Positions 4,325 to 5,761 of a stretch of DNA of 64,000 bases are shown here, piece after piece. The notes beneath the pieces were generated by a model. It had not been told where the DNA came from, did not search any database, and worked only from the letters and a program-made list of their open reading frames with translations. Every line of letters begins with the position of its first letter. Position 1 is the stretch's first letter. Position numbers and translations under genes: made by a program. Source of the DNA: Trichloromonas sp. (GTDB lineage Bacteria; Desulfobacterota; Desulfuromonadia; Desulfuromonadales; Trichloromonadaceae); NCBI GenBank assembly GCA_034002365.1, contig JAVFAR010000003.1, forward strand, positions 490-64,489. Direction: 5' to 3'.

Positions 4325-4539
4325 GTATCTCACGCAGCCCTTCGCAGAAGCACACACCGTCGCCACGGCGCCTCTCTTTTTTAAATACCCGGAGACCTGC
4401 TCGACCACTCCTGATCTCATCCCTGCCAAAGGGTTGGGTCGATCATCACCGATGAAGATCAACCGGCAAAAATACCAAGAGGCCTTGCTTTATACTTATT
4501 CTTGATATATATTGTAAATCAAATTAAAGGAGGTCGACG

Positions 4540-4695
4540 ATGGATTTTCTCTGGTTTATCGGGCTTATCGTTCTGTGGTATGTCATTAACCGCTGGATTT
4601 TCCCCCGGCTGGGCGTACAAACCTGACTCTCCGATTCCTGCAGTCTTCCCGTGCGGAAGGACAAACAATCCGAAAACAAAACGGGCAGCCCTTAG
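4540..4695 (+). CDS. Small membrane protein, candidate selenoprotein (UGA at codon 29, UxxxxC); 28 aa if UGA is a stop
   Basis: Not in the ORF track. RBS AAGGAGG and possible promoter TTGCTT-N17-TATATT (4485-4513). Reads MDFLWFIGLIVLWYVINRWIFPRLGVQT-UGA(4624)-LSDSCSLPVRKDKQSENKTGSP-TAG. Hairpin at 4643-4662. Confidence 0.6.
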
Positions 4696-4711
4696 GCTGC
4701 CCGTTTTGTTT
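4674..4711. terminator. Bidirectional intrinsic terminator
   Basis: 17-bp inverted repeat AAACAAAACGGGCAGCC-ctta-GGCTGCCCGTTTTGTTT between convergent genes. Confidence 0.8.
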
Positions 4712-4729
4712 GGCACCCTTTGCGGAAGA

Positions 4730-5059
4730 TCAGCGCAAAGGGGTAGCGCAGCGTGGACAGGTCAACATGCTGGTGGAGGGCACCCTGTGCCCACAGGTCG
4801 GGCAGTTGAACCAATATTTGCAGAACTTGCACTGAGGCTCGGAAAGGCCCTGTTTCTTCTTGCACTTGGGACACTGCCGATACATCTTGCGGGATTCCAT
4901 ATACTCCTTGAAGAGCAGCCCGCATCGGGGACAGACCTCCACCCCCGGCTTACCGATTTCAGCACCACAACCCGGCGCCGGGCAAAGAAATACCGTCTTG
5001 CATGCCTTGCACCAGTACTTGCCTTTTTGTTCTTCCTTGCACACCGGACATTTTTCCAT
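4730..5059 (-). CDS. Poly-zinc-ribbon (double-zinc-ribbon-like) protein, 109 aa
   Basis: Start MEKCPVC with RBS AGAGG. Eight Cys pairs: CPVC, CKAC, CPAPGC, CPRC, CPKC, CKFC, CPTC, CPRC. Confidence 0.8.
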   Translation of the reverse strand: MEKCPVCKEEQKGKYWCKACKTVFLCPAPGCGAEIGKPGVEVCPRCGLLFKEYMESRKMYRQCPKCKKKQGLSEPQCKFCKYWFNCPTCGHRVPSTSMLTCPRCATPLR

Positions 5060-5257
5060 AAAACCTCTCTTCTTCCCTTTCCGGGCAATAACAAACGCGG
5101 GAACACCTGACCGCGGCATTCCCGGGAACCGGTTTTCGGCCCGAACACGACATCGGGAGCGAATAAGTTCTTCAGGGTGCGGAGCAGGCCTGGGAGTTAG
5201 GCCACGGGAGGGGGAGCCGGAACGCCGGACCACCCCGGCGCTCCGGCTGGAGGGAAA

Positions 5258-5761
5258 TCAGTCGATCTTCTTGAAAGCGCTCTTCGCGGCGTTGCAGACC
5301 GGACAGGAACCGGCGGGCTCGCCTTCGTGGGTATGGCCGCAAACCTGGCAGACATAGTAGTCCACGGCCTCGTTGCGCCCCAGGTTGTCGAGGGCCTTCT
5401 GATAGAGCGCGGCATGCTCCTGCTCGACGGCATTGGCGAACTTGAAGTTGCGCAGGGCCGCCTGCTCCCCTTCCGCCTCGGCTTCGGCGATCATCCGCGG
5501 ATACATGCTGGTGAATTCGTGGGTTTCCCCGCCGATGGCGGTGCGCAGGTTTTCCGCCGTGTCGTTAATGCCGCCCATGGTCCGCAAATGGGCATGGGCA
5601 TGGACGGTCTCGGCATCGGCCGCCGCCCGAAAGAGCTTGGCCACCTGCAATAGACCTTCCTGCTCGGCTTTTTTCGCGAAAGCCAGATAGGTACGGTTGG
5701 CCTGGGCTTCCCCGGCGAAGGCTTCCTGAAGATTTTTACGGGTTTTGCTTGCTTCGGTCAT
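5258..5761 (-). CDS. rbr: Rubrerythrin
   Basis: Di-iron motifs NLQEAFAGEAQA, ETVHA, GETHE, EQEH and rubredoxin-like CQVCG...CPVC. Upstream TTGACA-N16-TAAAAT (5881-5854). Confidence 0.92.
   Translation of the reverse strand: MTEASKTRKNLQEAFAGEAQANRTYLAFAKKAEQEGLLQVAKLFRAAADAETVHAHAHLRTMGGINDTAENLRTAIGGETHEFTSMYPRMIAEAEAEGEQAALRNFKFANAVEQEHAALYQKALDNLGRNEAVDYYVCQVCGHTHEGEPAGSCPVCNAAKSAFKKID

Follow-up and report, generated by a model that had tools for sequence, protein, structure and literature searches.

Positions 4540-4695 on the forward strand of the analyzed window, a 64,000-nucleotide stretch of Trichloromonas sp. DNA, very probably constitute a selenocysteine-encoding gene of a large family that is absent from the catalogues checked. 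The explanation favored here as a whole is a 51-residue membrane-anchored selenoprotein, whose topology, chemistry and physiological role, including a redox function, we infer; its probability is put at about 0.8. The case above chance rests on comparison, namely on the conserved TGA, the conserved Cys, a positioned and covarying hairpin and homologues carrying Cys in place of selenocysteine (Sec). The original prediction had called the gene a candidate selenoprotein and had named three outcomes that would speak against this, none of which occurred.

The coding sequence starts with ATG at 4540, contains the Sec codon at 4624-4626 and ends with TAG at 4693-4695. Taken conventionally, it is an ORF of 28 codons ending in TGA (4540-4626, +), which encodes the peptide MDFLWFIGLIVLWYVINRWIFPRLGVQT; translated with TGA as U, the frame runs on as U-LSDSC-SLPVRKDKQSENKTGSP to the TAG, giving a predicted selenoprotein of 51 residues. 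The UGA at 4624-4626 (+) is read as selenocysteine (U29) on the strength of TGA conservation and the aligned Cys forms, and the following L-S-D-S-C (4627-4641, +) completes a U-x4-C motif with Cys34, encoded by TGC at 4639-4641. The 22 codons of open frame past the UGA are by themselves unremarkable. A Shine-Dalgarno sequence, AAGGAGG (4527-4533, +), lies 6 nt before the ATG, and a GGAGG-type site is present 5' of the start codon in nearly all relatives, where the start is located 28-29 codons upstream of the UGA. The strong ribosome-binding site with its start codon, the UGA, the downstream Cys and the frame open to the TAG are all as originally described.

A promoter-like pair (4485-4513, +) precedes the gene, consisting of a -35 element TTGCTT (4485-4490), a 17-nt spacer and a -10 element TATATT (4508-4513). 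The consensus promoter scan missed it because the -35 element matches at just three of six positions; nevertheless, almost all of 30 loci from the same order have cTTGC-N16-18-TATAT(A/T), with the start codon following 25-30 nt later. Many Desulfuromonadales also have a GTCAAG(A/G) motif about 45-50 nt upstream of the -35 box (loci L018, L019, L021, L027, L029, L031, L032, L036 and L038), possibly a site for a regulator or else the tail of the preceding gene. Downstream, folding of 4615-4715 (-38.7 kcal/mol, z = -4.5) revealed a terminator hairpin at 4674-4711 with a G+C-rich 17-bp stem and flanking A- and T-runs. The read-through TAG falls within its loop, in agreement with the earlier placement of the terminator at this codon. 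The gene would thus be monocistronic, with its own promoter, strong ribosome-binding site and terminator. A contig from a sediment metatranscriptome, belonging to a near relative, covers about 4519-4706 at about 92% identity and hints at a short monocistronic transcript, the RNA runs being assembled contigs of relatives from which neither transcription nor transcript ends are provable. Where this RNA-library contig departs from the window, it agrees with L014, a relative in the same genus. Contigs of a close relative, from both DNA and RNA, carry a change at 4602 (C>G, F21L) and synonymous changes at 4635, 4638 and 4644.

The terminator probably serves both the small gene and a convergent zinc-ribbon gene. 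This neighbor (4730-5233, -) encodes a 167-residue protein with many CxxC pairs, for which the Pfam zinc-ribbon matches (Zn_ribbon_3, DZR) were all below cut-off. An attenuator or leader-peptide arrangement, in which read-through melts the terminator, was ruled out because the next gene is convergent. Two long ORFs, 4502-5110 (+, 202 aa) and 4860-5357 (+, 165 aa), overlap the small gene in another frame and are antisense to the genes for the zinc-ribbon protein and rubrerythrin. ORFs of this kind cluster in 34 loci, presumably as a by-product of conservation in the sense genes, and these two ORFs are probably not genes.

The gene was recovered from 38 of 41 genomes of the same order by a six-frame search with the 51-residue translation, with most of 27 families covered, and each match runs through exactly one TGA and reaches residues 43-51. 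A profile built from the order-level loci was then applied to 401 genomes sampled evenly across Desulfobacterota; it detected the gene in 183 of them, and nearly all matches listed contain one in-frame TGA. A pattern scan with one genome per species yielded 345 loci. Alignment of 30 order-level loci gave M-x27-T-TGA-[LM]-S-x-x-C-S-L-P-[VG]-R-[KE], followed by a variable tail of Lys, Glu and Asp. A supposed second copy in contig C4 of the same genome proved to be a chance match, weak and off-frame, inside rpsI.

According to the original prediction, a genuine Sec codon should not be replaced by TAA or TAG among homologues, and the peptide should be conserved beyond it. The stop codon at the site is TGA in all 143 distinct sequences extracted (TAA 0, TAG 0), and the frame past it stays open for at least 13 codons in every one of them (median 23). 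Cys is found at +5 in all 141 U-x4-C forms, encoded by TGC in 90 and by TGT in 51. Ser occupies +2 in 129 of these 141 forms (TCN 99, AGY 30) and +4 in 91 (AGY 65, TCN 24). A switch between TCN and AGY requires two base changes, and the use of both codon families therefore points to the amino acid, and not the RNA, as the object of selection. The pattern provides evidence of purifying selection on the predicted peptide 3' of the UGA.

Bacterial SECIS elements lie inside the coding sequence, and criteria of the bSECISearch type look for a stem-loop 16-37 nt from the UGA with a G early in the apical loop. The SECIS-like hairpin of the window (4643-4662, +) has its stem at 4645-4649/4655-4659 and a loop CGUGC at 4650-4654 with G as the second base; the CUUCC/GGAAG core is lengthened by a G-C and a U-A pair across a bulged G. 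In a close relative, 4644 T>C converts this bulged lower stem into an uninterrupted 7-bp stem, as in most relatives. The hairpin is present as predicted, and its position and loop G are conserved among relatives, but taken singly it does not stand out from shuffles: folding the 45 nt in isolation gives -8 kcal/mol (z = 0.09), with a different structure as the minimum-free-energy fold.

Across the family, 129 of 143 TGA forms have a perfect hairpin of at least 5 bp (5-8 bp). The distance from the U of the UGA to the start of the loop is 23-27 nt in 118 of these 129, and a G stands within the first two loop bases in 126. Stems at this one position are lineage-specific, for example CUUCC/GGAAG, GUAUCGA/UCGAUAC and CUCCCGC/GCGGGAG. 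In the largest register class (59 sequences), the pair 23-33 forms in every sequence, as U-A in 38 and as C-G in 21; another class (15 sequences) shows two or three Watson-Crick types at four pairs. Within the order, CTT...AAG changes jointly to CTC...GAG in six of six cases, at the cost of a Lys-to-Glu change, and locus L042 keeps the CUUCC/GGAAG stem despite a peptide change to ELPRDGS. In the homology-selected order set, 81% of cells are paired and covariation is 0.095 versus 0.058 in shuffles (0 of 500 as high), with one covarying pair only; in slid controls, the true register was best for pairing, although a slide of -1 gave higher covariation (0.143). RNAalifold returned no consensus structure for the 56 most diverse UGA+45 segments, because the hairpin register shifts by up to about 4 nt between lineages, and no matching Rfam family was found for the hairpin. 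In Cys forms, hairpins occur anywhere between 16 and 36 nt, without a positional peak, and the fold z-score is -0.08 versus -1.59 in TGA forms (Mann-Whitney p = 8e-10), although the Cys forms are more G+C-rich. In locus L028 (G030:C27), the 3' half of the SECIS region (CCG GTA CGG GAG GAG) is duplicated around an N, which looks like an assembly artefact in that MAG. According to the mechanism proposed here, SelB with Sec-tRNA would be recruited by the hairpin 19-38 nt downstream and would decode the UGA at 4624 as selenocysteine.

Homologues with Cys at position 29 had been predicted, and many were found. When 1.8 billion representative proteins were searched with a profile, 840 matched at E <= 0.001. 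Many of these are full-length, 50-90 residues long, and have Cys where Sec would stand (...LNRWVLPxFG[IV]xT-C-MSGAC...); others are Sec forms ending at ...GVQT. The DNA of 36 distinct Cys forms, retrieved from metagenome contigs, has TGC in 33 and TGT in 3; these were found with the narrower alignment A3, the broad Cys alignment A2 having no stretch conserved enough to scan. Locus L169 is a Cys form that resembles the Sec forms of Desulfuromonadales (...TC-LSGGCGLPVRE), and in a single type of operon, close relatives alternate between Sec (L155, L176, L186) and Cys (L154, L180, L194). A search of the ESM Atlas gave just a sub-threshold lead (0.88), an unnamed cluster commonest in Planctomycetota.

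The product is predicted to consist of an N-terminal transmembrane helix (residues about 3-21), an interfacial segment N-R-W-x-L-P-x-x-G-x-x-T, the pair U29-x4-C34 and a disordered tail. The transmembrane and juxtamembrane part (residues 3-23, 4546-4608, +) contains a hydrophobic stretch at residues 3-17 and the conserved residues W13, N17, W19, L21 and P22. AlphaFold2, supplied with an alignment of 29 homologues, modeled one helix at residues 3-23 (pLDDT about 86) and left the remainder unstructured, consistent with the single transmembrane helix of the original prediction. The C-terminal tail is rich in Lys, Glu and Asp; the N-terminus has no positive charge, and Arg and Lys occur after the helix and throughout the tail. 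Given this charge distribution and the positive-inside rule, the Sec/Cys pair and the tail probably face the cytoplasm at the membrane surface.

No neighbor gene is universal across the loci. In the window and its close relatives, the flanks comprise a DUF2807 gene, the zinc-ribbon protein and rubrerythrin. The original prediction had stressed the adjoining rubrerythrin and poly-Cys protein; both are present, but within 3.5 kb rubrerythrin occurs at 16 of 143 loci and the double-zinc-ribbon cluster at 25 of 143, a count whose neighbor set leaves out the 167-residue protein of the window, and this adjacency was rejected as a functional clue since it is only local synteny. In its own genome, as in most Desulfuromonadales, the gene is either solitary or located after a sensor kinase gene, and no kinase adjoins it in the window. 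In another lineage, which has both Sec and Cys forms, it belongs to an operon that starts with ArsR, rhodanese+YgaP_TM and metallo-beta-lactamase+rhodanese genes and continues 3' of the small protein with TauE/SafE, an FAD oxidoreductase and a methyltransferase. The downstream part at L155, L176 and L186 includes the SAM methyltransferase, and some loci have pirin and a CoA-disulfide-reductase-rhodanese fusion. We take the set of ArsR, rhodanese, persulfide-dioxygenase-like, TauE and CoADR-rhodanese genes to be typical of BigR/CstR-type sulfide/persulfide detoxification clusters, as distinct from metal-resistance clusters. This sulfur-operon context belongs to lineages other than that of the window, with rhodanese-YgaP at 15 and ArsR at 11 of 179 loci. 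Other Cys forms sit after thioredoxin and zf-HC2 anti-sigma factor genes.

These operon contexts point towards reactive-sulfur or thiol chemistry over metals. The motif, the interchange of Sec and Cys and the operon contexts in other lineages led us to propose, tentatively and with less than even confidence, a membrane-anchored selenol/thiol pair that cycles via a selenenylsulfide and handles sulfane sulfur or thiol-reactive species. At the membrane, such a pair would take up sulfane sulfur or reduce oxidised species, and thioredoxin would recycle it. The earlier suggestion of a redox or metal-binding protein stays an inference on both counts, its redox side being favored by the operon contexts and its metal side disfavored.

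The alternative that survives best accepts a genuine selenoprotein and assigns it, instead of a redox or persulfide carrier, a role in binding metals or metalloids (Hg, Cu, Zn, As) or in modulating a partner, either an MgrB-like kinase or a TauE/YgaP-type transporter. Cys/Sec pairs bind soft metals, and ArsR-family regulators adjoin 11 loci; however, the ArsR operons also hold the rhodanese, persulfide-dioxygenase-like, TauE and CoADR-rhodanese genes, and no metal transporter or chaperone is among the recurrent neighbors. A membrane protein partner is suggested by the strong transmembrane/juxtamembrane conservation, by TauE directly downstream in the operon lineage and by 31 Desulfuromonadales loci at which genes for an OmpR-type regulator and a HAMP histidine kinase immediately precede the small gene on its own strand (30 of the 31 with a cardiolipin-synthase-like gene downstream), yet a universal neighbor is lacking. 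On balance, such a role is unlikely, at roughly the odds of one in five or a little better, and the redox or persulfide role is preferred.

The decoding of the UGA as Sec further depends on the Sec machinery. The same genome encodes selA (513 bits), a SelB wing domain (63 bits) and a selD with its own in-frame TGA. This selD is split over two contig ends outside the window (C82:11744-12190 and C171:4222-4824), the N-terminal piece following directly after selB on C82. Since that piece contains one in-frame TGA, the selenophosphate synthetase of this organism is, as judged from its sequence, itself a selenoprotein. The expectation of a genome equipped for Sec was borne out for these three genes but not for tRNA-Sec, which was not found in the assembly (88% complete, 233 contigs); it is present in five of five relatives tested (73-80 bits), two of them in the same genus. 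Many deltaproteobacteria use selenocysteine. In the phylum, SelB was found in almost every genome (375 of 401); the host background thus fits, but co-occurrence of SelB with the small gene is uninformative.

The missing tRNA-Sec could be taken to mean that the UGA is recoded by near-cognate read-through inserting Trp, Cys or Arg, with the hairpin as stimulator, and a few database relatives do have W, R or L at the site (P0005, P0044, P0050, P0015, P0036, P0030). This is highly improbable, because the W forms are most simply TGA called under genetic code 4, the true sense-codon homologues have Cys at the site, which is a hallmark of Sec sites, the position, size and loop G of the hairpin are as in bacterial SECIS elements, and the Sec machinery exists here and in relatives. 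Equally slim is the chance that the UGA is an ordinary stop ending a 28-residue membrane peptide, with the downstream conservation due to a non-coding RNA element, for example a hairpin that stabilises the mRNA or accompanies the terminator: gene callers and databases do end the protein at ...GVQT (28-29 aa), a real terminator lies within 50 nt of the UGA and the window hairpin is unremarkable when taken singly, but the invariant Cys at +5 is written as TGC or TGT, Ser is encoded by TCN in some forms and by AGY in others, the frame continues in 143 of 143 forms, TAA or TAG never occurs at the site and dozens of relatives with Cys there continue in frame.

Sec insertion remains the preferred reading, and on sequence evidence the small protein very likely represents a new family of a known kind, the bacterial SECIS-dependent selenoproteins, missing from the catalogues checked. 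NCBIfam (June 2026) gave no family at E <= 10 for the Sec form and nothing relevant for ten Cys forms, and the Sec form and ten Cys forms had chance hits only, below cut-off, in Pfam-A. A 2006 survey (PMC1794560) listed six selenoproteins in Desulfuromonas acetoxidans and eight in each Geobacter species, and a small U-x4-C protein is not among them; no description of one was found in Haft and Gwadz, the deep-Sep paper or the Olavius symbiont paper. A recent inventory (PMC13188914, May 2026) comprises 119 prokaryotic selenoprotein families in its Table 1; those inspected all have a domain identifier, and neither a U-x4-C motif nor a single-pass membrane microprotein is listed. The type of evidence is alike for those families, such as TsoA (NF045695, 'LULAXC motif selenoprotein') and OS_HP3 (NF041197, 'Dual CXXC motif small protein'), and for the small protein: an in-frame TGA, Sec/Cys pairs, a loop-G hairpin 3' of the UGA, a Sec-Cys redox-type motif and public annotation that stops at the UGA. 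The small protein differs from TsoA/OS_HP3-type families in having no sequence relationship to them, a U-x4-C motif, 51 residues, a single membrane pass and no globular domain.

Among eukaryotes, SELENOK and SELENOS are single-pass membrane selenoproteins with an N-terminal anchor and a disordered cytosolic tail that carries Sec near its C-terminal end; their SECIS elements lie in the 3' UTR, and in SELENOS the Sec forms a selenenylsulfide pair with a Cys. The small protein likewise combines a membrane anchor with a disordered Sec-bearing part, an analogy rather than homology. Unlike them, it is bacterial, at most half their size, and has its Sec close to the membrane and its SECIS in the ORF; no match came from the Pfam scan, in which the SelK/SelS families should be represented.

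In the YgaP-like transmembrane domain (PF11127/DUF2892) of membrane rhodaneses, as in the small protein, a hydrophobic segment terminates at the membrane surface in G-[IV]-x-T-C, and in the operon lineage the rhodanese+YgaP_TM gene is two genes upstream of the small protein gene. However, the small protein has one helix, not two, and a second Cys four residues later. Remote homology to this domain was considered and rejected (no Pfam hit; hhalign of alignment A2 against A4, probability 10.9%).

MgrB of E. coli is a small membrane protein of about 50 residues that modulates a sensor kinase and has one helix and functionally important Cys residues. The small protein resembles it in length, in its single helix and in relying, as predicted, on such residues, and lies beside a two-component system at the 31 Desulfuromonadales loci; it differs in that its gene has its own conserved promoter and no adjoining kinase in the window. 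To our knowledge, MgrB has no sequence similarity to the small protein.

Gene callers miss this gene or shorten its product to 28-29 residues, and a curated model is needed for annotation pipelines. The family would add hundreds to thousands of entries to bacterial selenoproteomes and, at 51 residues, its member described here would in our assessment rank among the smallest selenoproteins. A peptide of this length is chemically synthesisable, making it a tractable model of Sec/Cys redox chemistry at the membrane surface. The lineage-varied stems at one place and the loss of the stem upon Sec-to-Cys conversion offer a clean natural data set for SECIS evolution. The family occurs in operons for sulfide detoxification and in Desulfuromonadales that respire sulfur and metals, which suggests that reactive-sulfur handling has a membrane-side component so far missing from the picture. 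In its broadest form, the proposal is of a large family of minimal membrane selenoproteins, with the small protein as a founding member, that is present in roughly half of the Desulfobacterota, has Cys forms elsewhere among bacteria, holds a selenol at the cytoplasmic membrane surface and handles membrane-soluble reactive sulfur (persulfide, polysulfide, S0) or lipid-borne oxidants; we regard this as possible, with odds of about one in three. If true, the family would be a new class of very small membrane redox catalysts and among the most widespread selenoproteins of anaerobic sediment bacteria.
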